The notes: generated by a model not told the origin, from the letters alone. 24,088 nt of DNA from Fastidiosibacter lacustris (GCF_003428155.1 NZ_QLIR01000025.1:1-24088), one strand, 5' to 3'; positions 5,850 through 24,088 are shown, numbered from the stretch's first letter. A program made the numbers and translations.

Positions 5850-6637
5850 CTTATTACTCTTATTTCACCATCAAAGACATGTACAACCGAGCCTACTAAC
5901 ACATAGCCATTATCAACCACGTTTACTTCGAGTTCAGCAACTGCATTTTCTACCTTAACAGCTGAAGTTAAAAAACCCAAGTAAATACCAGCAAACACCG
6001 AAGCAATACTGCCACTGCCACAAGATGGTGTTACTCCTGTTCCACGTTCCCAATGTTGGACATAAATTTTATCTTTAGCTAAACGTTTAACACAATGCAC
6101 ATTAATACCATCTATGTATTGTCGTTGTATTGTTTGTCCAAGCGTATTAAAATCAAATGCTGGTGCATTTGCCTTAAGCCAAAGTACTAAGTGAGGATTA
6201 CCAACATCGACCTCAATTCCGTATTCAAATAATTGACTACCAGCTAAATTATAGGTCAGTGGTTTTAAGATCGGTAGTCCAAGGTTAACACTGATAGTGT
6301 CTTTTGAGGCGCGCTGGCACGCATAATGCTTGCCTTCTACTTCAATTGTAATCGACTCTTGGTGCATATTTTCTTTCAGGAATAAATATGCCACAGCGCG
6401 CAAACCATTACCACACTGTTTTGCCTGGCTGCCATCTTGATTATAAATGGATATTTTCACATCCGCTATCTGAGAAGCTCTTATTAATAACAACTGATCA
6501 GCACCTATCCCAAAACGTCGATCACATAGGTTTTGGATTTCTCCTAATTGCCAATCACATTGTCCTTTACGCTCATCAATTACAATAAAATCATTACCCA
6601 ATGCGCACATTTTGTGAAATTTCAATACTTTACTCAC
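5846..6637 (-). CDS. dapF: Diaminopimelate epimerase
   Basis: 263-aa ORF. N-terminus KFHKMCALGNDFIVID and the two catalytic Cys motifs (QCGNGLRAVA, SCGSGSIA). GTG start at 6637 overlaps the stop of the upstream KS gene. Confidence 0.9.
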   Translation of the reverse strand: MSKVLKFHKMCALGNDFIVIDERKGQCDWQLGEIQNLCDRRFGIGADQLLLIRASQIADVKISIYNQDGSQAKQCGNGLRAVAYLFLKENMHQESITIEVEGKHYACQRASKDTISVNLGLPILKPLTYNLAGSQLFEYGIEVDVGNPHLVLWLKANAPAFDFNTLGQTIQRQYIDGINVHCVKRLAKDKIYVQHWERGTGVTPSCGSGSIASVFAGIYLGFLTSAVKVENAVAELEVNVVDNGYVLVGSVVHVFDGEIRVIR

Positions 6638-9048: not shown

Positions 9049-10260
9049 TCATTCCTTACTCAATGATGTTTTAAACGACGAGTTTGCTGCAATAATTAGA
9101 CTTATATTATTACCACCAAAAGCAAAGGAGTTACTCATAAAATATGGTTTTTGCCAAATACTATTATCACCTGTTAATTTGATTTTGGGTAAATTTGGAT
9201 CAAAATTATCATTGCCAACTTGGGCAGGTAATTGTTTATCTGGATTATATTCAGTAGATAGTAAAAGCCAACATAAGCCCAATTCAGTTGCACTTGCTGC
9301 ACCCAAGGTGTGACCTGTTAATGGTTTAGTTGAACTACAATATACTTGATCAGTAAAAATATCAAAAATTGCTTTGCTTTCGATTTCATCATTTTTTTGT
9401 GTTGCTGTGCCATGTGTATTGATATATCCAATATCATCAGGGTTTAAATTTGCATCCTTTAATGCCTTTAGCATTGCCACTTTAGCTCCCATGCCTTCTG
9501 GATCAGGAGCGGTGATATGATACGCATCAGAAGTTTCTCCACCTCCGACAAATATTATTTCACTTTGATGTTTACTTAAGATAAAAAGTGACGCTCCTTC
9601 ACCAATGTTAATACCATCTCTATCAATCTGAAAAGGTTTACAAATATTAGAAGTCATTGAATCTAATGCATCAAAACCATTAAGTGGCACCTGTGATAAC
9701 GTATCTGAGCCACCTACAATACAAAGTTCACATATATTGGCCTCAATTAATCGCTTTGCCGCCATAAACGTTTTTCCACTAGATGAGCATGCTGTTGAAA
9801 TCGTATATATCGGTCCTTTAGCACCACAAAGATCAGCCACAAATTGTGCCATTTTGCCAAACTCTTGTTTGTGATAATGAAAACGCCTAGGCATAGCTTT
9901 AGTTTTAGCATGTACTATATAAGCTTGTTCACTTTCCAAAATACCAGCTGTACTAGTTCCAAGAATAACTGCAATGCGAGCAGGATTAATGCTGGCAGAC
10001 AAGCTTCGATAGTTTTTTTGGATTTGGCTAAATGCTGCTAACAGCATTCGATTGTTACGGCAATCAATCTTAGCATAACGCTTATCTAAAGCTGGTAATT
10101 CACAACTTACTTGACCAACGTAGGTTTTTCTACCACTAAAAAGCTGATCATATGGTTTTAAAGCTGTTTTATTTGTCAAAAGTGCACGTGCAATTTCTGC
10201 TTTATTACAACCTAAAGCATTGATAGCACCCATGTCATTAATATAAATTTTACTGTGCAT
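9049..10260 (-). CDS. Beta-ketoacyl synthase (KAS, ApeO/FabB-like)
   Basis: 403-aa ORF. Active-site Cys in ISTACSSSGKTF, His motifs NTHGTATQKND and TGHTLGAASA, C-terminal NSFAFGGNNISLI. Confidence 0.85.
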   Translation of the reverse strand: MHSKIYINDMGAINALGCNKAEIARALLTNKTALKPYDQLFSGRKTYVGQVSCELPALDKRYAKIDCRNNRMLLAAFSQIQKNYRSLSASINPARIAVILGTSTAGILESEQAYIVHAKTKAMPRRFHYHKQEFGKMAQFVADLCGAKGPIYTISTACSSSGKTFMAAKRLIEANICELCIVGGSDTLSQVPLNGFDALDSMTSNICKPFQIDRDGINIGEGASLFILSKHQSEIIFVGGGETSDAYHITAPDPEGMGAKVAMLKALKDANLNPDDIGYINTHGTATQKNDEIESKAIFDIFTDQVYCSSTKPLTGHTLGAASATELGLCWLLLSTEYNPDKQLPAQVGNDNFDPNLPKIKLTGDNSIWQKPYFMSNSFAFGGNNISLIIAANSSFKTSLSKE

Positions 10261-10264
10261 ACTC

Positions 10265-10849
10265 TTACACCAGTTTATGGAATAATGCCGAAGGTTGTGT
10301 CAAAAATTCTTCGATGAGTTCAAAGCTAACGTCAATGTTACTATAGGAGTGACCTTGACCTGTTTTTATATCGATGTGCGCACAGGCAAAGACCTGTTCT
10401 GCTAGATGAGCAGGTGTGATTGTATCATCTTGTTGTAACAGCAATAGATAATCATTCATGTGTTTAAGTTGCTTTGGCATGGCATTCACTAATGCCATTG
10501 CCTCGTGATACATATCGCTATATTGTGGCATTAAAGCAATCAAATCTAAGCGTGAAGCTGGATTGATTAAAATGACTTTGTCAATATCACTTCGCGTCTG
10601 TTTTAATAAATGCGCCATATAACCGCCTAGTGAGCTACCGATAATTACTTTACTATCAGCTTTAGCCTGAGATAAGAGTCGATCGATCATACTCATTGCT
10701 TGTTGTGTATTCATGGTTAAATGTGGCATGTCGATTTGAGCATTTGGATATTTTTGCTTAAACCATTGTTTAAGCTTTTGCGCTTTGGGTGAAGTCGGTG
10801 ACCCTTGAAAACCATGTAGATACAAAAAATATTTGCTTAGCTTACTCAT
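10265..10849 (-). CDS. Alpha/beta-hydrolase, YqiA-like esterase family
   Basis: LYLHGFQGSPTSPKA N-terminal motif and GSSLGGY nucleophile elbow. Start set at ATG 10849 (MSKLSKYF), preceded by AAGAGG and forming an ATGA overlap with the cmk-fusion stop. The track start at 10879 is probably an extension. Confidence 0.6.
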   Translation of the reverse strand: MSKLSKYFLYLHGFQGSPTSPKAQKLKQWFKQKYPNAQIDMPHLTMNTQQAMSMIDRLLSQAKADSKVIIGSSLGGYMAHLLKQTRSDIDKVILINPASRLDLIALMPQYSDMYHEAMALVNAMPKQLKHMNDYLLLLQQDDTITPAHLAEQVFACAHIDIKTGQGHSYSNIDVSFELIEEFLTQPSALFHKLV

Positions 10850-12555
10850 ATTGACCTCTTTGTGCTGATGTATTGCCAACAGTTAATCAGATGATAGCCT
10901 GTCGTTGATTTTACTTTATCAAAGGCAGCTTGCTCATTATGATCGATATACTCAATTGGTAAATCATTTGCTATAAACACCTTAGCAAAAATTTCAAATG
11001 CTGCTTCAAGTGTATTTTCTTGTTTTGTCATGGCAAGATAGCGCATGTATTCTAACATCGGCCAAATGCGATATTGTGTTTGATCATCTTTGTTATTCAA
11101 GTTACTGCGTACTAAGCCGTTAGCATTAACACCCTTTTGAGAGGCAGACAAAAATAATGCTTTATGATCGGGCATGAGTCCTACATCCACACCAAGTTCT
11201 AGTGCCTCCAAAATAAGTGCACTCCACTCAAAGCTATGACCTGGTTCAAAAACAACAGGTTGATATTCAATCGAATATTCACGCATCAGCATTTGCTTGT
11301 GATCAAAAAACAAAATAATGATTTGCTCATATAAAGCTTGTGCTTGATTTTTAAAAATATCACTTTTGGTATAGCGATAAGCACTTAAATAACTTTCAAA
11401 TAAGTGCATCAGCGCATTTTGACCAATTACACCTTGTGCATCCTTTAAGTTTTTAAATGCTTCACTTACAAACTTCTCTTGAATTAATTGATTCACCTTC
11501 AAAATATCCGCCAATAAATCTGTTTGTGTGTATTTTTGATATAAATGACTCAATGAGAAGAGTAAGAAAGCATATTCATAAGGATCACTAACGTTCCCAT
11601 CTTGAACAAATTTGTGCCAGCTTTGTGTTGAGTGATTCCAATAAAGTGCTTTTATCTGCTGATAAAGCTTAAAAGCCTTGTTCCACCCATCTTCTAGATT
11701 GTTTAAGCGCGCATAGGTTATTAAATAAAACATTCCCCTTGTTTGACATAATAGTCTTGTGTTGGCTTTGTTAACTAAATAAGGTTTGTCCAAAAATTCT
11801 GGTACATAACTAAGTGTATCGATATTTTTGACTAACAAGCCATAATAGGTTTTCTGCCACCGTTTAATATAGCTTAATCTATCTATACGTTTGATGTCGG
11901 TTAATACTTTATTAAAAACGCCATTGATATCCAAGTTACTAGTATCTACAACAATTGCATCATCTGCTGCTTTCAAGGGAGCTATTGCTCGATTCCTATC
12001 TTGCGCATCACGTGCTTGCAATTGCTCTAAAATCTCGTTGTAATCTGCTTTCTCAGCTTTAGCAACAAGTTCATCATAGCGTCGCTTTGCACGCACTTGA
12101 ATTTCTGCGTCTAAAAAAAACTTATATTGTGCATTTGGAAAGACAACTGTTCCCATGTCTCTTCCATCTGCAACCAAGCCCTTTACTCCTTTAGCAAAGT
12201 CTTTTTGGCACGCAAGCAAAGCTTCGCGCACAATAGGAATTTTTGCAATTTTAGATGCTATCATACCTGTTTTTTCTTCCCTGATTCGGTGGCTTACATC
12301 GACACCATTCAAATAAGCGGTTGTTTTATCATCTTCAATCTTAAAGTCAATATTTAAATTTTTTAAGGTGTGATATAAACGTTCTTCATTACAAAGATCT
12401 AACTGCTGATCCAAAACAAGTAATGCCGCTAGCCGATAAATGGCTCCACTATCTAACAAGGCGTAATCAAACTGCTTGGCTAACAAGCGTGATAACGTGC
12501 CTTTTCCCACTCCACTTGGACCATCAACTGTAATAATATCAACCTTATTTCCCAT
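10846..12555 (-). CDS. cmk: Cytidylate (CMP) kinase fused to a C-terminal AGE-superfamily (N-acylglucosamine 2-epimerase / sugar isomerase-like) domain
   Basis: N-terminal ~225 aa is a complete Cmk (ITVDGPSGVGKGT P-loop, LDSGAIYR, GRDMGTVVFP, RAKRRY). The remaining ~340 aa carry alpha/alpha-toroid AGE-type motifs (YEYAFLLFSLSHLY, NALMHLFESYL, EPGHSFEWSALILE, RIWPMLEYMRY). It is one uninterrupted ORF. ATG at 12555 is preferred (AGGAG 10 nt upstream) over the TTG at 12564. Confidence 0.75.
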   Translation of the reverse strand: MGNKVDIITVDGPSGVGKGTLSRLLAKQFDYALLDSGAIYRLAALLVLDQQLDLCNEERLYHTLKNLNIDFKIEDDKTTAYLNGVDVSHRIREEKTGMIASKIAKIPIVREALLACQKDFAKGVKGLVADGRDMGTVVFPNAQYKFFLDAEIQVRAKRRYDELVAKAEKADYNEILEQLQARDAQDRNRAIAPLKAADDAIVVDTSNLDINGVFNKVLTDIKRIDRLSYIKRWQKTYYGLLVKNIDTLSYVPEFLDKPYLVNKANTRLLCQTRGMFYLITYARLNNLEDGWNKAFKLYQQIKALYWNHSTQSWHKFVQDGNVSDPYEYAFLLFSLSHLYQKYTQTDLLADILKVNQLIQEKFVSEAFKNLKDAQGVIGQNALMHLFESYLSAYRYTKSDIFKNQAQALYEQIIILFFDHKQMLMREYSIEYQPVVFEPGHSFEWSALILEALELGVDVGLMPDHKALFLSASQKGVNANGLVRSNLNNKDDQTQYRIWPMLEYMRYLAMTKQENTLEAAFEIFAKVFIANDLPIEYIDHNEQAAFDKVKSTTGYHLINCWQYISTKRSI

Positions 12556-13982: not shown

Positions 13983-14633
13983 ATGAAAAAATTGAGTAAA
14001 ATTATTGGCATCACTGCATTTTGTTTAACAAGTGGTAACTTTGTATTTGCTCAAGGTGTGCAAACGGGACTTACTCTTGGTGCAAGCTTAGGTGGTGCAT
14101 CAACACAAAACTACGACTCTAGTGGAATAATCAGTAATACCACCAAAACACAAGGTGGTGCCTATGGTGGTTTTGCAGTTGGTTATGACCTTGCTTTAAC
14201 CCAAAACATAAGTCTTGGTGTCGAATCCGGTTTTTATTATGGCTATAGCTTAGCTTCATTAAAAGCAGATGGTCTAGATAAATCTAACCTTAACCAGTGG
14301 AACATCCCTCTTCTTATTGTTGGCAAATACACTTTCAATAACGGTGTTAATGTGTTTGCGAAAGCGGGTGCAACTTATGTTCATCAACAAATTACAAATA
14401 CCGACACCTATTTTGTTCCTGGTACCAATGGCACCAATTTTGAATTTTTACCAGAGCTTGCAGCAGGGGTCGGCTACAAATTCACAAATGGTATTAATAT
14501 TGGGGGTCAACTTGGCTATTTATTTGGTTCAACCGCAGACTTAAGAACATCTAACTCTTATCACGGTAATGATGTCAAGGTTGCGGCAAGTGTGACTTTG
14601 ACTGCTTACATTAGTTACACATTTCCTATATAA
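13983..14633 (+). CDS. Outer-membrane beta-barrel protein (small OmpA/OmpW-like porin-family barrel)
   Basis: 216-aa ORF. GGAG SD 7 nt upstream. Signal peptide MKKLSKIIGITAFCLTSGNFVFA-QG. Gly/aromatic-rich alternating strands (GGFAVGYDL, GVESGFYYGY, AAGVGYKF). C-terminal aromatic motif ISYTFPI. Confidence 0.6.
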   Translation: MKKLSKIIGITAFCLTSGNFVFAQGVQTGLTLGASLGGASTQNYDSSGIISNTTKTQGGAYGGFAVGYDLALTQNISLGVESGFYYGYSLASLKADGLDKSNLNQWNIPLLIVGKYTFNNGVNVFAKAGATYVHQQITNTDTYFVPGTNGTNFEFLPELAAGVGYKFTNGINIGGQLGYLFGSTADLRTSNSYHGNDVKVAASVTLTAYISYTFPI

Positions 14634-14647
14634 ATAAACTTTAAGTT

Positions 14648-14693
14648 GTACAAGTTTAGACTCGACTTGACAGTTGCTTATTTTAAAACGCGA
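14648..14693. repeat. Left copy of the island-flanking imperfect direct repeat
   Basis: GTACAAGTTTAGACTCGACTTGACAGTTGCTTATTTTAAAACGCGA matches 23963-24009 at 41 of 46 aligned positions plus one 1-nt gap, aligned by hand. Weaker similarity extends to ~14641-14700 versus 23956-24020. Confidence 0.8.
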
Positions 14694-15061
14694 CGGCAGA
14701 ATTTAGAACTGTGAAAAATTTACACAGTCAATTGAACAGGTTTGGCTCATCTATTTTTATCTAAGTCTTGTGATTCTGTCATTACCAAGGTAAAGTGTCG
14801 GACTAATTACCAAGGGATTTTGTCGTGTTAATAGTATGGTCTGAATGCTATTGAGTCAACAAACTATTAGTAATAACCCTGACGTTATTAACCGAATCAT
14901 AAAAACTGGTAGTCCCTGCTTTTGTGGGTAACGTTTGACCTGTTTTTATCGTGTTCTCACCTATATAGGACTAGTGTTAAGGTCCGTGCTTCAGCAGTAA
15001 CGCAATACCTGATCTGACTATCCTGCTGCTTATTTATTCTCTACATACTTGAATTTAGGGG

Positions 15062-15091
15062 TTGACAGCCAATAATATTTCATGCTGAAAT
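15062..15091 (+). promoter_or_regulatory. Candidate promoter for the small ORF/operon (perfect TTGACA, weak -10)
   Basis: TTGACA at 15062-15067, then TGAAAT at 15086-15091 after an 18-bp spacer. A second perfect TTGACA at 15129-15134 has no usable -10. Pattern only. Confidence 0.2.
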
Positions 15092-15188
15092 TACTGTGGC
15101 GGGCAAGGAACTCTTAGCGACCGCTAGATTGACATTTTAAATTACCGCCGAAAGATGGTAATTTGAGGCATTACAATAAGGGGGATTT

Positions 15189-15368
15189 ATGAAATCAAGT
15201 GATAACCAAAAATTCGCGAAAGCTTCTAGTGATGACCCCGTTGTCTATCCACGTCATTTTGCTCCAGACTTTAAAGTCATGGGTGCTGGATCCACGCAGT
15301 GGCCACGGCATGCGAATCATGTATTGACAAGATCAGGTGTAACATCAGGATGTTTATCAAAAACATAG
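15189..15368 (+). CDS. Un-called 59-aa ORF, candidate precursor peptide of the radical SAM system
   Basis: ATG at 15189 preceded by TAAGGGGGA (15178-15186). Hand translation: MKSSDNQKFAKASSDDPVVYPRHFAPDFKVMGAGSTQWPRHANHVLTRSGVTSGCLSKT, stop TAG 15366-15368. One residue below the 60-aa cutoff the ORF track appears to use. Same strand as, and ~230 nt upstream of, the radical SAM gene. Confidence 0.5.
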   Translation: MKSSDNQKFAKASSDDPVVYPRHFAPDFKVMGAGSTQWPRHANHVLTRSGVTSGCLSKT

Positions 15369-15596
15369 TTATAACATTGATAGTTCGTTAGTATGGCAAC
15401 ATAATTAGCTAAAAAATAGTAGCCTGCGACGGGATCAACTATTCTCGCTAAAAAATTGATGAAAGTCTTATAAATAAGGGATTTTTGAATAAAACAGTTA
15501 CGAAAAAATACAAAGTGAGCATAATTGCATATCAAAGGATCTAAGACTGGATTTTCTGGTTGCGGGATATGTCTGGCTGTAAGGAGGGTTAGTGTA

Positions 15597-16286
15597 GTGC
15601 AACATGATATCTCAGAATATATTTCCCGTGATGAGCCTTTATTTAGTGCACCTGTTCACGTTGATTTTGATATGACAAATGCATGTAATCTGGCATGTCA
15701 TCACTGTCATGCTGCATCTGGTAGAAGACAGCATGATGAATTAACTTCAGATGAAATAAAACATGTGATCGCCGATTTGCATCAAAATGGTGTAATAGAC
15801 TTAACTATTGCTCGAGGTGAGCCATTTCTCAGACCTGATTTATCTGATATCTTAGAGTATGCTGATTCATGCCAAGGTATTTATACAACTGTAGTAACGA
15901 ATGGTACGCTTTTGAAGCGTGAAACAGTAAAAAAACTTTCCTCAAATTGCAGGGGCATAAATTTCAACATTAGTATTGATGGCTCCACTCCGGATAAGCT
16001 GGATATTCTTCGACACAGAAAAAAACGTGATAATGACAAAAAAAGACAGTTGTTTGCTCAGATTATTGATGATGCTAAAGCCATTTCGGATGCTGGACTT
16101 ACTCTCGGAGTTAGCTTTGTAGCCAGCGGAATGAATGCTGATGATCTTGAAAATGTTTACGATATGGCTGTTAATGAGCTAAGGGCGAAAAGTGTAACTG
16201 CAATACGTTTTTTTCCTGCCGGTTTTGGAAAGAATGCGTTAAACGAGCTGGTGCTAAAATATGAAAAGTGGGAAAAATTATTCTAA
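15597..16286 (+). CDS. Radical SAM enzyme, N-terminal (AdoMet radical core) fragment of a frame-disrupted rSAM/SPASM gene
   Basis: CX3CX2C cluster motif in DMTNACNLACHHCHA, then GEPFLRPD and VVTNGTLL. Likely start is GTG 15597, 9 nt after AGGAGG (15582-15587); the track start at 15525 is an extension. The frame ends at TAA 16284-16286 and the reading continues in the -1 frame. Confidence 0.8.
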   Translation: MQHDISEYISRDEPLFSAPVHVDFDMTNACNLACHHCHAASGRRQHDELTSDEIKHVIADLHQNGVIDLTIARGEPFLRPDLSDILEYADSCQGIYTTVVTNGTLLKRETVKKLSSNCRGINFNISIDGSTPDKLDILRHRKKRDNDKKRQLFAQIIDDAKAISDAGLTLGVSFVASGMNADDLENVYDMAVNELRAKSVTAIRFFPAGFGKNALNELVLKYEKWEKLF

Positions 16287-16774
16287 ATCTTACTAGAAGA
16301 CGTCATTCTTTCCAGAATCTCACCATTTCTGTTGCAGCTCCATGGGAAATATACCTTCCCCTACTGGAAAATGGCTACACACCTCAACAAGTGTGGGAAA
16401 TCTGGCAATATAAATCAATGCTAGCAGATCCCCTTTATTCATCAGCTTATCAGATCGGTGATTCGGGTGGGATTGGGGATTTGAATATCAGCGGTAATGG
16501 TAATGTATACCCTTCAGTTCTAATGTCAGGTAGCCATGACGTCCTATGCGGAAATATACGCAACCAGTCACTAAAATGGATATGGAATAACGCTAACCCT
16601 CTAAAGGAACTACGTAATATTCAACTTTCTAAAATTGGTGGTCCATGCGTTGACTGCCACATTCGTGATTTATGTGGTGCAGGCTCGCGCGCTCGCGCGC
16701 TTTCTCTGACAGGGAGTATATACGGACTTGATTATTGGTGCCCTGTCATTGCAAAAAATCTCAAGGAGATATAA
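16268..16774 (+). CDS. SPASM-domain C-terminal fragment of the same radical SAM enzyme
   Basis: GNGNVYPSV..LCGNIRNQSLKWIWNN followed by PCVDCHIRDLCGAGSRARA and YWCP. This is the CX2CX5C...C auxiliary Fe-S pattern of SPASM/twitch domains. The frame is open only from 16265, so the join to the upstream fragment lies in 16265-16283. Confidence 0.75.
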   Translation: MGKIILNLTRRRHSFQNLTISVAAPWEIYLPLLENGYTPQQVWEIWQYKSMLADPLYSSAYQIGDSGGIGDLNISGNGNVYPSVLMSGSHDVLCGNIRNQSLKWIWNNANPLKELRNIQLSKIGGPCVDCHIRDLCGAGSRARALSLTGSIYGLDYWCPVIAKNLKEI

Positions 16775-16776
16775 TT

Positions 16777-17085
16777 ATGTTACTGTATTCCAAAGAAAAT
16801 AGTACCATGCGTCTGCTGGAAAGATGCTATGGCGCCGAATTAAGGTATAATCGTCAGGTATTTTTTGCCAATAATGATTTAACAAAAATTATCAAATTTG
16901 TTATTAAAACATCTGGTTGTGATTACCCTCCGTCGTATAGTAGTCAATCATGGGTAGATGAAAAAACTGTACGTGACACATTGCATAAACTTTCAGATGC
17001 AGGTATTCCACTTTCATTTTGGGGTGAGTTTTGGAGTAATACTGAAGTTTTGTCAGCCAATCATAGTTTGAAGATAGATTTATGA
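16777..17085 (+). CDS. Small PqqD/RRE-like protein (putative precursor-peptide recognition element)
   Basis: 102 aa from ATG 16777 (AAGGAG 8 nt upstream; 2 nt after the SPASM stop). The size, the position next to the rSAM gene, and the pattern of beta-strand residues followed by helices (NNDLTKIIKFVIK ... VDEKTVRDTLHKLSDAGIPL) resemble PqqD/MftB-type domains. Assignment is by resemblance only. Confidence 0.45.
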   Translation: MLLYSKENSTMRLLERCYGAELRYNRQVFFANNDLTKIIKFVIKTSGCDYPPSYSSQSWVDEKTVRDTLHKLSDAGIPLSFWGEFWSNTEVLSANHSLKIDL

Positions 17086-17969
17086 CGGTTTTTTCATTTG
17101 CCAGAAAGATAGGGGATGCGTTGTACCGTGAGTGGGGAGAGATAAACTTTGATGTTATATCATTTCCTAGTCTTGCATATAATTCCATAACATCGTCAAA
17201 GCCAGAAACAGAAATTAATGTGTTTGATATTCCATTTTCATTATTAAGAGTGAATCAAATACCAAAGCAAAGAGTTAATAACGGATCGTTATTTGGTCAG
17301 CCACCACTCACCCTGTACGTGGCAGAAGACAAACGATTCTTTATTGAAATTTATTTATGGTCATCTGTTGATATGACTATCCATGATCATCCATTTTCAG
17401 GTGCTTTTACGGTACTAGAGGGAGTTTGCCAGCATGATTCATATCTTTTTGAGAGATCAGGTGGTTCCAATCAGCTACAGATGGGGAGCCTGATTTTTAA
17501 AGAAACCGAGCTAATGTCAAAAGGCGACTGCAGAATGATTTTTAATGGTGACCGTCTTATCCACAGAAATCTTCATTTGTCGAAACCAACAGTTACTTTT
17601 ATTATCAGAACCTATCGTGATCTAGGTCTCACTGGTAGAATCTATGAAGAGTCAGGACTTGCTATTGCGCCAGACCTGACAATTGCAGAGCAGAAATTTT
17701 TGGATTATCTTGATGGAGTGTTACGACTGAACAACTACGATACAGCTTTACGGATGATACAGTCTCTTATAAGCTCTGGTTTTAGTGATTTTGCTAAATA
17801 TCATTCTGCAAAGGTCTATCTAGAACAGACCCGACGTTATAACGAAGTAGAATCTATTTCTGACATGCTTGCGTCATCCATACCTGATGTTACTTCTGAT
17901 TTTTTCAGAAAGACTTTCCTGCTTCAGATAGAGCCCATTCTGAGTGGTGAGTCCTATACAACGTACTGA
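17082..17969 (+). CDS. Cupin-fold metalloenzyme, thiol dioxygenase-like (cysteine dioxygenase / PCO-ADO type His motif)
   Basis: 295-aa ORF with an ATGA overlap to the upstream gene. TIHDHPFSGAFTVLEG resembles the HxHP..m..f.vLyG motif of cysteamine/plant-cysteine oxidases. A further His cluster LIHRNLH lies ~57 residues downstream as a candidate third metal ligand. Confidence 0.4.
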   Translation: MTVFSFARKIGDALYREWGEINFDVISFPSLAYNSITSSKPETEINVFDIPFSLLRVNQIPKQRVNNGSLFGQPPLTLYVAEDKRFFIEIYLWSSVDMTIHDHPFSGAFTVLEGVCQHDSYLFERSGGSNQLQMGSLIFKETELMSKGDCRMIFNGDRLIHRNLHLSKPTVTFIIRTYRDLGLTGRIYEESGLAIAPDLTIAEQKFLDYLDGVLRLNNYDTALRMIQSLISSGFSDFAKYHSAKVYLEQTRRYNEVESISDMLASSIPDVTSDFFRKTFLLQIEPILSGESYTTY

Positions 17970-17980
17970 CAGGAGGCTTA

Positions 17981-18943
17981 ATGATAACAAAATCTACATT
18001 GCTCGAACTGTACAAAACTGCTTTTATTATTCGTACCGTAGATCAAAAAATTGATGAAGGACTCAGAAATAATCATTTTTTTGCACTGCATTACCCTGTT
18101 AAAGGGCAAGAGCTCATTTCTGCATCTTTAGGTGTCAATAAATATCCTGGGGACAAAATTGTTTCTACTTATCGATGTCTTGGTGACCTCATCGGATTTG
18201 GTGGTTCATATTATTCTTATTTCGCTGAAATTATGGGGAAAAAGGATGGAATATCCGGTGGCAAAGGTGGATGCATGCATCTGTGTTCGACTGAAAACGG
18301 GTTGCTAGCTACAACAGGAATAGTGGGAGGTGGACTGCCAATAGCATGTGGTGTCGCACTATCAGTGCAGACAGATGGCAACGACAATATTGTCTTTGTT
18401 ACCTTTGGAGATGGTGCCACAACAACCGGTGCGTATCATGAAGCAATGAACCTTGCGGGATTATGGAAGCTGCCCATACTGTTTATCTGTATCAATAATG
18501 AATATGCACTGCATACTAGGCTTAGCCGTATAACTACAAATACCGAGCTTTATACAAAAGTAGATGTGTATGGTATCCGCGCCTTCAGAGCAGTAGTAAG
18601 CGAGCCTGAGAAGTTGCATATTACTGTGACTAAGTGTGTGGAATTTGTTCGAGACACTGGTGAACCTATATTTCTTGAAATATCCTGCCCTCGTCTTCAC
18701 GGACATATGACAGGCAGCAACACTGAATACATGAACTTGCCTGCTGACGATGAAATGTTTCAGGTAGATCCACTTATGCTGTTTAGAAAGCAAGTCGTCA
18801 GGGAATATGACAGCAACAACCAACTGGAAAGTATTGAATATCAGATTATTAATGATGTCTCCGCTTCCTATAACAAAGCATTAAATGCTCCCCTTCCTGA
18901 TAATCAGGATCTATTGAAAGAGATTACAAAATATACAACATGA
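17981..18943 (+). CDS. Thiamine-diphosphate-dependent 2-oxoacid dehydrogenase E1 component, alpha subunit
   Basis: 320-aa ORF with AGGAGG SD. GQELISASLG and the TPP-binding motif FGDGATTTGAYHEAMNLAGLWKLPILFICINNEYA. Confidence 0.85.
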   Translation: MITKSTLLELYKTAFIIRTVDQKIDEGLRNNHFFALHYPVKGQELISASLGVNKYPGDKIVSTYRCLGDLIGFGGSYYSYFAEIMGKKDGISGGKGGCMHLCSTENGLLATTGIVGGGLPIACGVALSVQTDGNDNIVFVTFGDGATTTGAYHEAMNLAGLWKLPILFICINNEYALHTRLSRITTNTELYTKVDVYGIRAFRAVVSEPEKLHITVTKCVEFVRDTGEPIFLEISCPRLHGHMTGSNTEYMNLPADDEMFQVDPLMLFRKQVVREYDSNNQLESIEYQIINDVSASYNKALNAPLPDNQDLLKEITKYTT

Positions 18944-19968
18944 AAAGAGCACATGAACTATCGACTTCTCTGATGACTTTCGCTGAAGCTCTGAACAGCG
19001 CACTCGATTATGCACTACAAACTAATCCGGACGTTATTTTACTTGGAGAAGATATTGGCATACCATCAGGTGGAATTTACAGAGTGACGCAGGGACTGGA
19101 AGAGTGCTATGGTGCAAGAAGAGTGATAACAACTCCTATTTCTGAGCAGGGTATTATTGGTATGGGGATCGGTCTCGCTCTTTGCGGGAAGCGACCAGTG
19201 GTTGAAATCATGCTTATGGACTACCTGACAATTGCTTCAGATCAGCTTATTAATCATGCTGCCAAATTTAGGTACACAACAAATGGAGCCAGCCATGTTC
19301 CGCTTACGGTCAGAATGCATGTCGGAGGGGGAACAATGGGTGGAGCTCAGCATTCCCAGTCCCTTGAAGCCTGGCTGACGCATACTCCAGGTCTTAACGT
19401 TATTATGCCTTCCACTCCTGAAGATGCCAAGGGGTTATTATTATCCTGTATAAACAATGATGATCCATGCATCATGCTGGAATGCGTAGAGCTGCTCTGG
19501 TCTGGAGACAGGCATCCTGTTCCAACAGGTGCTCACCAAATACCTTTGGGGAAAGCACGAATTATGAAAGTAGGTGATGATATCAGCCTAATTGCTTACG
19601 GGAGATCGGTTGCCTGGTGTCTTCGTGCGGCTGAACTGGCTAGACAGCGCTTAGGGATTAGCTGTGAAATTATTGATTTGAGGAGTCTTGTGCCTCTTGA
19701 TTTAGACTTAATATTGAACTCTGTAAAAAAAACACGTAGAGCACTTATTGCTCATGCAGCTAGTAAGTTCTGTGGGTATGGGGCTGAAATTGCTTGCCAG
19801 ATCACGGAGTCCTTGCATGCTTGCCTTCATCATCATGTTGTTCGTGTGGGTAGTCTTACGAGTCCTGCCCCCTATTCTATGTTTTTGGAAAAGCAGCACA
19901 TGCCAGATGAAAGTCGTATTTTTGATAAAATAATGGATATCTTTGGTATTACAGGAAATGACAGATGA
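18940..19968 (+). CDS. 2-oxoacid dehydrogenase E1 component, beta subunit (transketolase-like pyrimidine-binding and C-terminal domains)
   Basis: 342-aa ORF with an ATGA overlap to the alpha subunit. LLGEDIG, PISEQGIIGMGIGLALCGKRPVVEIM, QHSQSLEAW, and a C-terminal IDLRSLVPLD motif. Confidence 0.85.
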   Translation: MKRAHELSTSLMTFAEALNSALDYALQTNPDVILLGEDIGIPSGGIYRVTQGLEECYGARRVITTPISEQGIIGMGIGLALCGKRPVVEIMLMDYLTIASDQLINHAAKFRYTTNGASHVPLTVRMHVGGGTMGGAQHSQSLEAWLTHTPGLNVIMPSTPEDAKGLLLSCINNDDPCIMLECVELLWSGDRHPVPTGAHQIPLGKARIMKVGDDISLIAYGRSVAWCLRAAELARQRLGISCEIIDLRSLVPLDLDLILNSVKKTRRALIAHAASKFCGYGAEIACQITESLHACLHHHVVRVGSLTSPAPYSMFLEKQHMPDESRIFDKIMDIFGITGNDR

Positions 19969-20645
19969 TACAGGGCTCTTCATTGCTCAGACTACCAGGA
20001 ATGGGAGGACTACTTGTGGGTTATGCTTTATCTGTTATTGCAGACACATCGGTATATATCGTATTTGCGGTTTGGGCAAAGCAGTTAACTGGAAGTACAG
20101 CTGGAGCAGGACTTGTGTTTTTTTGCTTTATAATACCTTCATTAATCAGTCCCTTGACTGGAAACATTATTGACCACTTCAGGAAAGATAGCACTATTGT
20201 ATTAATTAATCTTTTCATGGCGGCATCAATACTGAGTCTCTATTTTTCTCATGAGCAGCATCAGTACATTTTGCTGCTTGTGTCGGCCTTTATATATGGA
20301 CTTGGTTATGTAATATTCAATTCAGCACGAGTCTGCCTTGTTGTGAACAGCTATGATGAACAGCATATCGGACAAATAAATGCCTTGCTGAGAACACTGA
20401 GAGAATCTGTGAGGCTGGTAGCTCCTTTATTCGGAGTGTATGTCTATACTGTTTTTGGAAATCATGTTTTCGTTTGGTTTGTGAGTTTATCTCTAATTTT
20501 GTCTGCCTTTCTTTTTCTAAATTTTGAAAAAAAGAGCAATGACTATAGCACAGGTAAAGTTTCACTATTTTCGCTACGTGGACTCTGGAATGGAGCTCAG
20601 GGTATATGGTATGACACTATGACACACTTATTCGCTCCTGTGTGA
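19965..20645 (+). CDS. MFS transporter (EntS/MFS_3-like exporter), N-terminal fragment of a frame-disrupted gene
   Basis: ATGA overlap with the E1 beta stop. Consecutive hydrophobic helices and the LTGSTAGAGLVFF..PSLISPLTGNIIDHFRK motif typical of EntS-like exporters. Stops at TGA 20643-20645 and continues in the -1 frame. Confidence 0.7.
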   Translation: MIQGSSLLRLPGMGGLLVGYALSVIADTSVYIVFAVWAKQLTGSTAGAGLVFFCFIIPSLISPLTGNIIDHFRKDSTIVLINLFMAASILSLYFSHEQHQYILLLVSAFIYGLGYVIFNSARVCLVVNSYDEQHIGQINALLRTLRESVRLVAPLFGVYVYTVFGNHVFVWFVSLSLILSAFLFLNFEKKSNDYSTGKVSLFSLRGLWNGAQGIWYDTMTHLFAPV

Positions 20646-21163
20646 TTTGTCTTTCAATTACGCTTCTGGTTGCTGGATTTTATGAAATTATCCTTTTTAA
20701 CATCATTGATTACCTGCATCAACCGCTATCTCTCATCGGAAAGTTTATTTCTGCACAAGGAGTCGGGGCAGTGATGGGAGGGTTACTCTCCATAAGACTG
20801 ATAAAGCAGGTCTCACCCGGAATACTAGTCTCAGTGGGTTTTTTTATTCAAGTAGTATTTGCCCAGAACATCCCCTTAATTTATATCAGCTGTGCAATTT
20901 TTGGTTTTGGCGCGCCAGTTTCCATGGTGGGACTGGACACTATGATCCAAACGAAACTTCCTTCTGCCATTCAGGGGAGAGTCAATACTTCACTGGAAGC
21001 CATTACCAGCATTCCGTTTTCCCTATCATTTCTAGTTTCAACTCTTATGACCATTGTGGTTTCCTATAAAATTATGCTGTTTTGTATGGTTGTAGTGACT
21101 ACTTCTGCTGCCTGTTTCCTTTTACTGATGATCAGAAAGGTGAGAAATTACAATGACTCTTAA
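20642..21163 (+). CDS. MFS transporter, C-terminal fragment
   Basis: 173 aa made almost entirely of TM helices. The frame is open only from 20615. The two fragments together give ~399 aa, the size of a 12-TM MFS protein. Confidence 0.7.
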   Translation: MICLSITLLVAGFYEIILFNIIDYLHQPLSLIGKFISAQGVGAVMGGLLSIRLIKQVSPGILVSVGFFIQVVFAQNIPLIYISCAIFGFGAPVSMVGLDTMIQTKLPSAIQGRVNTSLEAITSIPFSLSFLVSTLMTIVVSYKIMLFCMVVVTTSAACFLLLMIRKVRNYNDS

Positions 21164-21224: not shown

Positions 21225-22094
21225 ATGAAACAAGAAAAGAAGTGGTATTGTCGCAAAGTCAGGCCAACTGCAATGCCACAGCATATTCTTAATGATGGAA
21301 TAAAAATCCCTTTAATTGGTCTTGGTACATATCAACAACCACGCTCATCGCTGATGAATGTATTATTTTCGGCCGTTGAAGACGGTTATCGGTTATTTGA
21401 TACGGCATCAATTTATGATAATCAGAAAATTATTGGTCATTTCATTAAGAGTGTCCCAGTTAATCGACATGAACTATTCATTACAAGTAAAGTCTGGAAT
21501 AGTGATCACGAAAATGTTATCTCCTCAATTAAAAAATCGCTGGATGAGCTTCAGACGGATTACCTTGATCTTTGCCTGATACACTGGCCTGCAACGAAAG
21601 ACGGTAACTTTATCAGAGCGTGGGAATCATTAATTAGGTTACGAGAAAAAAGCCTGATCAGAAGCATAGGGGTCAGTAATTTTACTGCCCAGCAGGTAAG
21701 TTTCCTCTTCGAGGTTACAGGTATCCTGCCAGCAGTAAATCAGATCGAAATACATCTCAGGAATCAGCAGCAAAATATTATTCTGGAAATGTCAGAACTA
21801 GGGATTTTTGTCCAGTCATGGAGTCCTTTATGGACAGGTGATTTGACAGAAACTGAATATTCACGGCTTGCCGGAATGGCGCTGAAGCACAATAAAACAA
21901 TAACCCAGATAATCCTTAGGTGGCATATAGAAAATGGATTTGGTGTAATACCAAAAACTTCACAAGTGGGCAGGTTACTGGAAAACATAAGCATTTTTGA
22001 TATAGAGCTAGACTTAGACTCCGATGATTTGATTTTTTTATCTTTACTCAATATGGATAAGAAGATTATGGAATATCCTGATGACTATGTCTGA
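21225..22094 (+). CDS. Aldo-keto reductase (2,5-diketo-D-gluconate reductase-like AKR)
   Basis: GIKIPLIGLGTYQ, DTASIYDNQ (catalytic Asp/Tyr), TSKVWN (Lys), LCLIHWP (His). GGAGA SD upstream of ATG 21225. An internal start at 21273 (MPQHILNDG) is also possible. Confidence 0.85.
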   Translation: MKQEKKWYCRKVRPTAMPQHILNDGIKIPLIGLGTYQQPRSSLMNVLFSAVEDGYRLFDTASIYDNQKIIGHFIKSVPVNRHELFITSKVWNSDHENVISSIKKSLDELQTDYLDLCLIHWPATKDGNFIRAWESLIRLREKSLIRSIGVSNFTAQQVSFLFEVTGILPAVNQIEIHLRNQQQNIILEMSELGIFVQSWSPLWTGDLTETEYSRLAGMALKHNKTITQIILRWHIENGFGVIPKTSQVGRLLENISIFDIELDLDSDDLIFLSLLNMDKKIMEYPDDYV

Positions 22095-22306: not shown

Positions 22307-23119
22307 GTGAAGAGTTATAATGATTATGATGCTATAGGTTATGAGAATTCATTAGAAATTGATCACAATAAATCCATGCTAATTGAAGACAGGCAGTTCA
22401 TTAGTTTAGACTGGTCAAAGGTATCCTGCCAAAAGAATATTACCTTTAAAAGGTGTCGTATTCTCAACTCCAACTTCAAGCACGCAAGGTTACATGAACT
22501 GAAGGTTATTGAGTGTGAGATATATAACTGTGATTTTTCACACGCAACTCTAGATGATGCAATTTTTGAAAGAAGTATATTCTATGACAAAGATAATGCA
22601 GTTGGATGTTCGTTCTATAGAGCTGATCTATTAAGATCTCAATTTAATTACTGTAATATCTCAGTAAGTGATTTTGAGCGTGCGGATGCTTTTCAAATTA
22701 CCATAAATAACTGCAAGGCTCAGGGTTGCAATTTTAAATTTACAAATTTCACCAATGTAGTTAGTCGAACGAAAATCTTTAGTTGCGCAGAATTAACAAA
22801 TAGTGATTTTAGGTATTCAGACTTGACTGGTGTATATCTAGCAAAATGTGATCTATCAGGAAGTAAATTAGTTTCGGTGATACTTTCAAGAGTAAATTTA
22901 GAGGAAGCAGATTTAACGAGCACGGACTTTTCACCCAGTCAATATGATGGGATAAAACTACATAAAGCAGATCTAAGGAATTCCAATATTGCTAATATAG
23001 ATATTAAATATATAGATTTTTCTGGGGTGAAAATATTTGAGTGGCAACAAAGCATATTTATGGAAAGTCTAGGTATACTGGTTTTCCCTGAAGGAAAGGA
23101 TGGTTTGAATGGACACTAA
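22307..23119 (+). CDS. Pentapeptide-repeat protein
   Basis: 270-aa ORF (GTG start, AGGTG upstream). A long run of A(D/N)LxX-type five-residue repeats, e.g. CDFSHATLDDAIFERS, YRADLLRSQFNYCNISVSDFERADAF, SDFRYSDLTGVYLAKCDLSGSKLVSVILSRVNLEEADLTSTDFS, KADLRNSNIANIDI. Confidence 0.85.
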   Translation: MKSYNDYDAIGYENSLEIDHNKSMLIEDRQFISLDWSKVSCQKNITFKRCRILNSNFKHARLHELKVIECEIYNCDFSHATLDDAIFERSIFYDKDNAVGCSFYRADLLRSQFNYCNISVSDFERADAFQITINNCKAQGCNFKFTNFTNVVSRTKIFSCAELTNSDFRYSDLTGVYLAKCDLSGSKLVSVILSRVNLEEADLTSTDFSPSQYDGIKLHKADLRNSNIANIDIKYIDFSGVKIFEWQQSIFMESLGILVFPEGKDGLNGH

Positions 23120-23319: not shown

Positions 23320-23962
23320 ATGGATGAATCTCCGATCTTATCTGTTGAAGAAATTGCCTTTTGTCTGACAAAGAAAAGTCCGTTAAACCAAATTGCATGT
23401 GCAATTATGCTGGGGTGTTTTAAAATACACATTAGGTTCCCCTTGTCTGATGAAGCTCCATTACTTCTCAAGTTGTCTTCAAAAGTTTCGGCTGAATTAG
23501 AGCTAGAACAACAGAATATTTTTGAGTTTGATTGGAGTAGTCGTACCGCAGAAAGGTATCGCAACAATATTAGACAGCTGCTAGGCTATAGAGAAGCTAC
23601 AAATGAGGATGCCTCACCATACATTAATTATTTGCAAAATGAGTATTACCAAAATTCCCTTCCAAAGAGATTATATTGGCGCAGTCACGTTTATATTTTG
23701 AACGGCATAAAATTGAGCAATTCTCCGTAAAACAAATAAACCGTTATATAATTTCAGCACAGCAACAATTTGAGCAATCCTTCTTTCAAAGTATTTTTGA
23801 TAACTTAACGCCAGACGATTGTTTTTTGATTGATCAAATTCTTACAACCAGTACTGAGAAAATTAAAATTGAGAAGGTAAAGGGCGACGATATTAATTTA
23901 GCCATAAAAAAGATTGAACAACTCAGTAAAATGAAGCTTCCCAAACATGTATATATTAATAT
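23320..23962 (+). pseudogene. tnpA: Tn3-family transposase remnant: N-terminal (DUF4158-type) ~215 codons only, frameshifted and 3'-truncated
   Basis: Two overlapping frames (23320-23730 and 23676 onward). They carry Tn3-type N-terminal patterns (LSVEEIAFC..., DWSSRTAERYRNNIRQLLGYREAT, then INRYIISAQQQFEQSFFQSI..LTPDD). Full Tn3-family transposases are ~1000 aa. The reading frame runs into the flanking repeat at ~23963. Confidence 0.65.
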
Positions 23963-24009
23963 GTATAAGTTTAGACTTGACCTGACAGTTGCCTATTTTT
24001 CAAACGCGA
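23963..24009. repeat. Right copy of the island-flanking imperfect direct repeat
   Basis: GTATAAGTTTAGACTTGACCTGACAGTTGCCTATTTTTCAAACGCGA; see the left copy at 14648-14693. Confidence 0.8.
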
Positions 24010-24016
24010 TTTTTGT

Positions 24017-24088
24017 CAGATATGGTTGAGCAATTCAACCTTCTCTTGCCAGTGCGTTTTCCCATCAGTAAAAGTTGCTATTGGTGTT
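24017..24088 (-). CDS. 3' end of an unidentified CDS continuing beyond the window
   Basis: The reverse-strand frame is open from the window edge to TGA (24019-24017): ...TPIATFTDGKTHWQEKVELLNHI. Too short to name. It would be convergent with the OMP gene if the island is removed. Confidence 0.3.

Follow-up and report, generated by a model that had tools for sequence, protein, structure and literature searches.

What does the short open reading frame (ORF) ahead of a radical SAM (rSAM) gene in Fastidiosibacter lacustris encode, and what has become of it? We analysed a 24,088-nt stretch of DNA from this bacterium (GCF_003428155.1, NZ_QLIR01000025.1:1-24088; hereafter, the window), in which the ORF occupies 15189..15368 on the + strand, with ATG at 15189, 59 codons and TAG at 15366-15368. 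The start, stop, length and translation were exactly as quoted in a first-pass annotation made from the sequence alone, which had proposed a RiPP precursor. That annotation was also right in making the ORF the first one on the rSAM operon's strand: upstream of it, the closest + strand gene encodes an OMP beta-barrel (13983..14633) and ends 555 nt away. A Shine-Dalgarno (SD) sequence, TAAGGGGGA (15177..15185, + strand), precedes the ATG by 3 nt (TTT); the distance of 4 nt from its G run to the ATG is as first described, but the spacing of the SD had been given as 2 nt. The peptide contains a single Trp (W38) and a single Cys (C55), also as claimed. The ORF had been called unannotated, which holds only under a 60-aa ORF cut-off, and an identical 59-aa protein is already present in the NCBI protein set. 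Searched against a set of 5.8 billion proteins, the peptide matched only itself, and neither Pfam nor NCBIfam had a model for it, or for the ~100-aa protein and the cupin encoded downstream. Scans for promoters and terminators gave about what chance would (5 vs 4.4 expected).

Precursors of such size are rarely called as genes, and homologues were therefore sought via the neighboring 295-aa protein and the DNA upstream of the rSAM genes. The 295-aa protein search returned 23 relatives from Xenorhabdus, Photorhabdus, Streptomyces venezuelae and metagenomes, and ten loci fetched around such relatives formed the comparison set; a scan of genome contigs that started from the cupin alignment yielded just two loci. 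A small peptide with one to four copies of (M/L)-x-W-P-R-(H/Y) was found directly upstream of the rSAM gene in nine of the ten loci (for example, MKSNINPKFVSTSSDSMAWPRHSVPDFKTLNTDSMAWPRHANPALTKVDSSSMAWPRHYIPSV in X. littoralis), and no WPR-motif peptide was found upstream of the rSAM gene in the sequence examined of locus L006. Five further precursors with one or two repeats each came from a profile search, one of them (P0027) being the L009 peptide; P0026 and P0028 are natural precursors with two motifs. A single-motif subfamily (L009, 4205..4345; P0029; P0030) carries MDWPRY, in which Tyr replaces the His after Arg, and has a long unrelated C-terminal tail. The metagenomic locus L008 (ENA contig_20478) encodes a four-repeat WprA (6195..6440; SMAWPRH four times) among Rep3 replication, resolvase and umuDC-like genes, which suggests a plasmid-borne wpr cluster whose repeat number varies by unit duplication; PLSDB contained no related plasmid.

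Repeat peptides of this type are the substrates of a known family of enzymes. Khan et al. (ACS Chem Biol 2025) reported that the rSAM enzyme WprB makes a Trp-C5 to Arg-Cgamma cross-link in WprA (PMC11851443). The WprA of Xenorhabdus sp. psl (X. littoralis psl) has three WPR motifs, each cross-linked independently with a change of -2 Da per motif (PMC11851443). WprB, which is reported to be 28% identical to WgkB and to be without the Aux I cysteines, is active only with the chaperone WprC (97-103 aa), in which R12 and R23 matter, and the W37F, R39F and R39K variants of the precursor are left unmodified (PMC11851443). Haedar et al. (Commun Chem 2026) described identical chemistry for WprA2B2C2 of S. 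venezuelae, where changes in the residues just before the motif impair cross-linking by WprB2 and the S9 protease WprP2 cleaves after WPR and at Gln-Pro; for the Xenorhabdus wpr cluster, no protease is known (PMC12957482). The WPR family itself was already published in 2025-2026, and the Fastidiosibacter copy is a new degenerate member. Fastidiosibacter is not mentioned in the main texts of the two papers (supplementary lists apart), and its frameshifted wprB would not show as a protein in a PSI-BLAST search.

The comparison loci could be tied to these published systems. The L001 peptide fits WprA1 of X. littoralis, with motifs 18 residues apart and Asn, Val and Asn before the three Pro, and the L007 peptide fits WprA2 of S. 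venezuelae, as all cited residue numbers match at a constant offset of 5 and its C-terminus is WPRHTE. These matches, together with the identities of the rSAM enzyme and the small protein of the window to WprB and WprC of X. littoralis (see below), are the basis for naming the ORF wprA.

To compare the ORF with this family, we built a profile HMM on six precursors encoded at other loci, leaving out the window ORF. Among the 674 stop-to-stop segments that the six frames of the window contain, the ORF had an E-value of 1.4e-10, and the runner-up 0.54. In tblastn, the peptide matched the syntenic spot upstream of the rSAM gene with E-values of 4e-4 or less in seven loci out of ten (3.7e-12 for L001) and weakly in L010 (E 0.085), and nothing was matched at that spot in L009 or L006. 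In-frame conservation next to rSAM homologues, for which the first-pass annotation had suggested such a search, was thus found. The peptide is 52% identical to X. littoralis WprA over 48 residues, and the two genes are colinear in protein and DNA, sharing the N-terminus MKS..N.KF, the place of the SD and P-R-H twice. The SD aligns with GAGGAGG/TGGAGG at the same position before wprA of X. littoralis and P. heterorhabditis. The two P-R-H motifs of the window (at Y20 and W38) lie 18 residues apart, a spacing equal to that of the Xenorhabdus and Photorhabdus precursors. The order of precursor, co-directional wprB and wprC recurs in L001, L002, L005, L007, L008 and L010. By sequence homology and synteny upstream of wprB, the ORF is a genuine gene for a WPR-family precursor peptide, homologous to WprA, and the proposal of a RiPP precursor for the adjacent radical SAM/SPASM-type enzyme was upheld.

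The same data bear on whether the frame could have arisen by chance within a long intergenic stretch whose true feature would be an RNA with a regulatory role, or else the ORF 15317..15535 on the - strand, which had itself been named as the potentially conserved one. The ORF is short and the flanking intergenic regions are long (555 nt upstream and 228 nt downstream), but a chance ORF would not account for in-frame syntenic homology in seven loci and a weak match in an eighth. No RNA family was matched in Rfam at E <= 1 in the region 14500-15800. All tblastn matches of the - strand ORF 15317..15535 in the ten loci lay elsewhere than at the syntenic spot, at E >= 0.95; for the - strand ORF 15195..15320, the sole syntenic match was in L001 and was not significant (E 0.077). 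Neither - strand ORF had a Pfam match. Because the homology is in frame and syntenic, the - strand ORFs have no significant syntenic match and no Rfam family was found, we regard the ORF 15189..15368 as the conserved feature; the chance reading is refuted by the WprA profile and the tblastn synteny, and we give it practically no credence. The gap between wprA and wprB is 228 nt in the window vs 79-87 nt in Xenorhabdus and Photorhabdus. About 100 nt of it (15440..15545) are without a counterpart in the intergenic region of either genus.

The alignments also speak to the architecture of the precursor. The first-pass annotation had divided the peptide into a charged leader and a 25-residue C-terminal core, cut at MGAGS as a Gly-Gly/Gly-Ala-type junction, with the Trp and the Cys of the core modified by the rSAM enzyme and a dioxygenase-like protein. 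One part of this is borne out: W38 lies in a WPR motif, and the Trp of that motif is the shown cross-link site in the X. littoralis homologue (PMC11851443). A cupin with a thiol-dioxygenase fold is indeed encoded downstream, which speaks for this layout. The rest is contradicted by the alignments, in which the homologues are multi-core repeats starting at residue 18-20. The window peptide likewise begins with a short N-terminal part and then repeats its core motif at a spacing of 18 residues. The counterpart of MGAGS in the alignments is a spacer of variable sequence between repeats (LNTDS/TNSQS), and no homologue has Gly-Gly there. C55 sits in the decayed tail. Of the 12 other precursors, ten have no Cys and two have one in a non-aligned region, so that none has a Cys close to a motif. 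We consider this leader-core arrangement very improbable. A precursor with a Gly-Gly leader processed by a C39 peptidase was likewise rejected, as the alignments have no conserved Gly-Gly and the cluster has neither a C39 peptidase nor a peptidase-domain ABC transporter. A PqqA/MftA-like precursor was rejected because the scores of the rSAM enzyme against the mycofactocin and PqqE models are far below their cut-offs.

Although recognisable as wprA, the precursor has decayed, a point that the first-pass annotation had missed, as it had the existence of a published family. Motif 1 (Y20-P-R-H, in VVYPRH; 15246..15257, + strand) has Tyr in place of Trp (TGG in X. littoralis to TAT) and Val instead of Met/Leu at position -2 (ATG to GTT), and its CCA CGT CAT codons are identical to those of X. 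littoralis. Motif 2 (W38-P-R-H, in TQWPRH; 15300..15311, + strand), the sole intact WPR, has Thr instead of Met/Leu at -2 (ATG to ACG). By DNA alignment to X. littoralis, a remnant of the third repeat and of the original C-terminus lies at 15357..15397 on the + strand. Where X. littoralis has TCA ATG GCC TGG CCA CGT CAT, encoding Ser-Met-Ala-Trp-Pro-Arg-His, the window has TCA AAA ACA TAG TTA TAA CAT (15357-15377). The TAG that ends the ORF (15366-15368) is the former third Trp codon, and the Arg codon has also been replaced by a stop; the recognisable remnant of the original tail and its stop runs to about 15397. In the 12 other precursors, all 27 motifs have W-P-R, Met/Leu at -2 and His/Tyr after Arg.

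The rate of change of the gene was also high. Between the window and X. littoralis, wprA has a dN of 0.41 and a dN/dS of 0.50 (48 codons, one sequence pair), vs a dN of 0.08-0.20 and a dN/dS of 0.10-0.31 for seven flanking genes of the same pair. In intact clusters, the dN of wprA is at most that of the enzymes (0.105 vs 0.13-0.24 between X. littoralis and P. heterorhabditis). Two-motif precursors exist elsewhere, so that the loss of the third motif is not disabling in itself.

Damage was found in the downstream genes as well. The wprB gene (15597..16774, + strand), which encodes a homologue of the rSAM cyclophane synthase, has a GTG start and the SD AAGGAGGG and is broken into two frames, 83% and 74% identical to X. 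littoralis WprB. The gene retains the sequence for the CNLACHHC motif and for both the Radical_SAM and the SPASM domains, but its frame is not intact. The lesion is a 1-nt deletion at 16270-16279 (A run at 16273-16277; X. littoralis GGGAGAAAATT vs window GGGAAAAATT), relative to both the Xenorhabdus and the Photorhabdus genes; as it lies at a homopolymer, it could be an assembly error. The gene for the ~100-aa chaperone homologue, wprC (16777..17085, + strand), is intact, its product is 69-71% identical to X. littoralis WprC, and R12 and R23 are invariant across six sequences. The genes for the 295-aa cupin, with a thiol-dioxygenase fold in the predicted structure (17082..17969, + strand), and for E1 alpha and E1 beta of the thiamine-diphosphate-dependent 2-oxoacid dehydrogenase type (17981..19968, + strand) are intact too. 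The MFS transporter gene (19965..21163, + strand) is in two frames owing to an 8-bp tandem duplication, with perfect copies of TATGACAC at 20610-20617 and 20618-20625; the duplication is absent from the Xenorhabdus and Photorhabdus genes. Such a duplication is a typical replication-slippage mutation and not a typical sequencing error.

The distal part of the cluster comprises intact genes for an aldo/keto reductase (AKR; 21225..22094, + strand; 78% identical to the X. littoralis AKR) and a Qnr-like pentapeptide repeat protein (22307..23119, + strand), followed by an N-terminal fragment of a Tn3-family transposase (DUF4158; 23320..23730). Another ORF (23676..24029) overlaps the transposase fragment in another frame and has no family match. 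Together, the two (23320..24029) delimit the acquired region close to where the contig ends. The AKR gene is downstream of the MFS gene and on the + strand here vs divergent and upstream of wprA in Xenorhabdus and Photorhabdus (L001, 7110..7928, - strand), and this position indicates that the cluster was rearranged. Upstream of the locus are housekeeping genes (for a serC-like aminotransferase and a cytidylate kinase) and the OMP beta-barrel gene.

Could the ORF nevertheless encode a functional, diverged WprA with two cores, in an active cluster whose frameshifts are errors or are tolerated? W38-P-R would then be cross-linked, and possibly Y20-P-R through a Tyr-Arg bond. Such a variant can be entertained because two-motif precursors occur naturally and the wprB lesion, at its A run, could be an error. 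The good SD, the ATG and the N-terminus MKS...F are kept, as are the 18-residue spacing and the P-R-H of each motif (encoded by identical codons in the case of motif 1), and the wprC, cupin, E1 alpha/beta and AKR genes are intact with dN/dS of 0.11-0.31. The lesion in the MFS gene, however, is a perfect 8-bp tandem duplication, which is untypical of sequencing error, and the stop falls exactly on the third Trp codon with more stops behind it. Met/Leu at -2, without exception in the 27 motifs elsewhere, is lost twice here. Mutations before the motif impair cross-linking by WprB2 (PMC12957482), and a W37F precursor is not modified by WprB (PMC11851443). The dN of wprA is 2-5 times that of its neighbors. 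Altogether, we consider a functional two-core precursor unlikely.

The origin of the cluster was addressed by synteny and divergence. The order of precursor, rSAM, ~100-aa protein, cupin, E1 alpha/beta, MFS and pentapeptide genes is found in X. littoralis, P. heterorhabditis, X. bovienii and a plasmid-like contig, and the core of precursor, rSAM, small protein and cupin also in S. venezuelae and metagenomes; S. venezuelae has an S9 peptidase in place of the E1, AKR and pentapeptide genes. The closest relative of the window cluster is the characterised cluster of X. littoralis, with a dS of 0.6-0.8; the enzymes and the transporter are 78-86% identical in protein sequence (WprC, 69-71%). The dS between the X. 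littoralis and Photorhabdus clusters is about 1-2.5. The host belongs to the Thiotrichales within the Gammaproteobacteria, an order that differs from that of Xenorhabdus. GC content is 0.39 in the window cluster, 0.375 in the rest of the window and 0.43 in the Xenorhabdus cluster. The greater closeness of the window cluster to X. littoralis than of X. littoralis to Photorhabdus, despite the different order, and the transposase fragment point to horizontal acquisition.

It is thus highly probable, in our judgment, that the ORF is the wprA of a horizontally acquired wpr-type RiPP cluster that is now degenerating, with the precursor as an evolutionary remnant. In the intact systems of X. littoralis and S. 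venezuelae, where this has been shown, WprB, with the help of WprC, abstracts a hydrogen and joins Trp-C5 to Arg-Cgamma in each WPR. The remnant keeps the N-terminus, the 18-residue spacing and the P-R-H of two motifs, with one intact WPR, and has lost Met/Leu at -2 in both motifs and its third motif to a stop, alongside the frameshifts in wprB and the MFS gene. Synthesis of the product by the Fastidiosibacter locus has probably ceased. Transcription of the ORF may persist, as may translation, the SD being a good one, and at most W38-P-R could remain a substrate, given active WprB and WprC. A point against decay is that the genes for WprC, the cupin, both E1 subunits, the AKR and the pentapeptide protein are intact and have low dN/dS; any inactivation of the enzymes would therefore be recent, or those genes serve another end.

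The cupin and the pentapeptide repeat protein link the precursor to a wider set of genes. AlphaFold predicted the 295-aa protein as a cupin flanked by helical segments (mean pLDDT 88), and its best PDB matches are thiol dioxygenases (mercaptosuccinate MSDO, cysteine CDO, 3-mercaptopropionate MDO and cysteamine ADO); His101, 103, 161 and 165 are invariant. The cupin gene adjoins wprC in all ten loci, Streptomyces included (10001..10882 in both L001 and L007), yet ten of the 12 other precursors lack Cys. The main texts of both Wpr papers leave this strictly conserved cupin and the Qnr-like protein undiscussed. Every gammaproteobacterial or metagenomic wpr cluster that has E1 genes also encodes a Qnr-like pentapeptide repeat protein, next to an MFS exporter, the pentapeptide genes of the comparison loci lying on the - strand (L001, 14088..14726; L002, 14093..14731; L003, 14156..14809; L008, 12090..12728; L010, 5429..6112). 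The window protein may have a separate origin, as it is only 29% identical to that of X. littoralis and encoded on the other strand. In Photorhabdus, resistance to speirobactin, which targets gyrase, is encoded within its operon by a gene for a pentapeptide repeat protein (PMC12406682). In all gammaproteobacterial loci seen here, wprABC is joined to cupin, E1 alpha/beta, AKR, MFS exporter and Qnr-like genes, and this combination suggests an exported product that targets gyrase or topoisomerase IV. By analogy, the wpr precursor might be the first step of a longer pathway to such a product, with the pentapeptide protein giving self-immunity and Fastidiosibacter having a failing copy in which the genes for tailoring and immunity survive; we put this forward tentatively, as a possible but rather doubtful scheme. 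Less likely still is a variant in which the YPRH motif of the window is a natural substrate for a Tyr-Arg cross-link.

These results settle the small ORF as wprA and not as a new RiPP class, and extend the wpr family to the Thiotrichales via what was probably horizontal transfer. The locus is a natural experiment in which the precursor lost its defining residues faster than the enzymes lost theirs, and its decay shows which positions are constrained in intact systems, namely Trp and the Met/Leu at -2.

Among named systems, WgkA/B/C (tryglysin), the triceptides and darobactin likewise rely on an rSAM enzyme that cross-links an aromatic residue with an sp3 carbon at a distance of two residues. 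For the C-terminal half of the window rSAM enzyme, the best match is the NCBIfam WgkB model, at 78 bits, far below the cut-off of 650; the motif is WGK in the one and WPR in the other, and the bonds differ. WprC is unrelated to PqqD-type RREs. Closer to the window is WprA2/B2/C2/P2 of S. venezuelae NPDC049867 (PMC12957482), which likewise has a precursor with repeated x-W-P-R-H, an rSAM enzyme and a small chaperone, and whose cupin is 41% identical to that of the window and of one family with it. Unlike the window, the S. venezuelae cluster has the S9 protease and is without the E1 alpha/beta, AKR and pentapeptide genes, and WprA2 has a repeat spacing of 22 and Leu-Arg before the Trp.

The likeness is greatest to WprA1/B1/C1 of X. 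littoralis (PMC11851443), which has the same 5' order of precursor, rSAM enzyme and ~100-aa chaperone. The two precursors have in common the N-terminus (MKS-N-KF), the 18-residue motif spacing and P-R-H, and the cupin, E1 alpha/beta and MFS proteins encoded downstream are 79-86% identical between the clusters (tblastn). The window differs in that one of three WPR motifs is left and the Met-Ala before the Trp is replaced, in the frameshifts of wprB and the MFS gene, in the AKR gene being downstream and not divergent and upstream, and in a different pentapeptide repeat protein on the other strand. The hosts differ as well: the window comes from a freshwater member of the Thiotrichales, whereas X. 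littoralis is an entomopathogenic enterobacterium.
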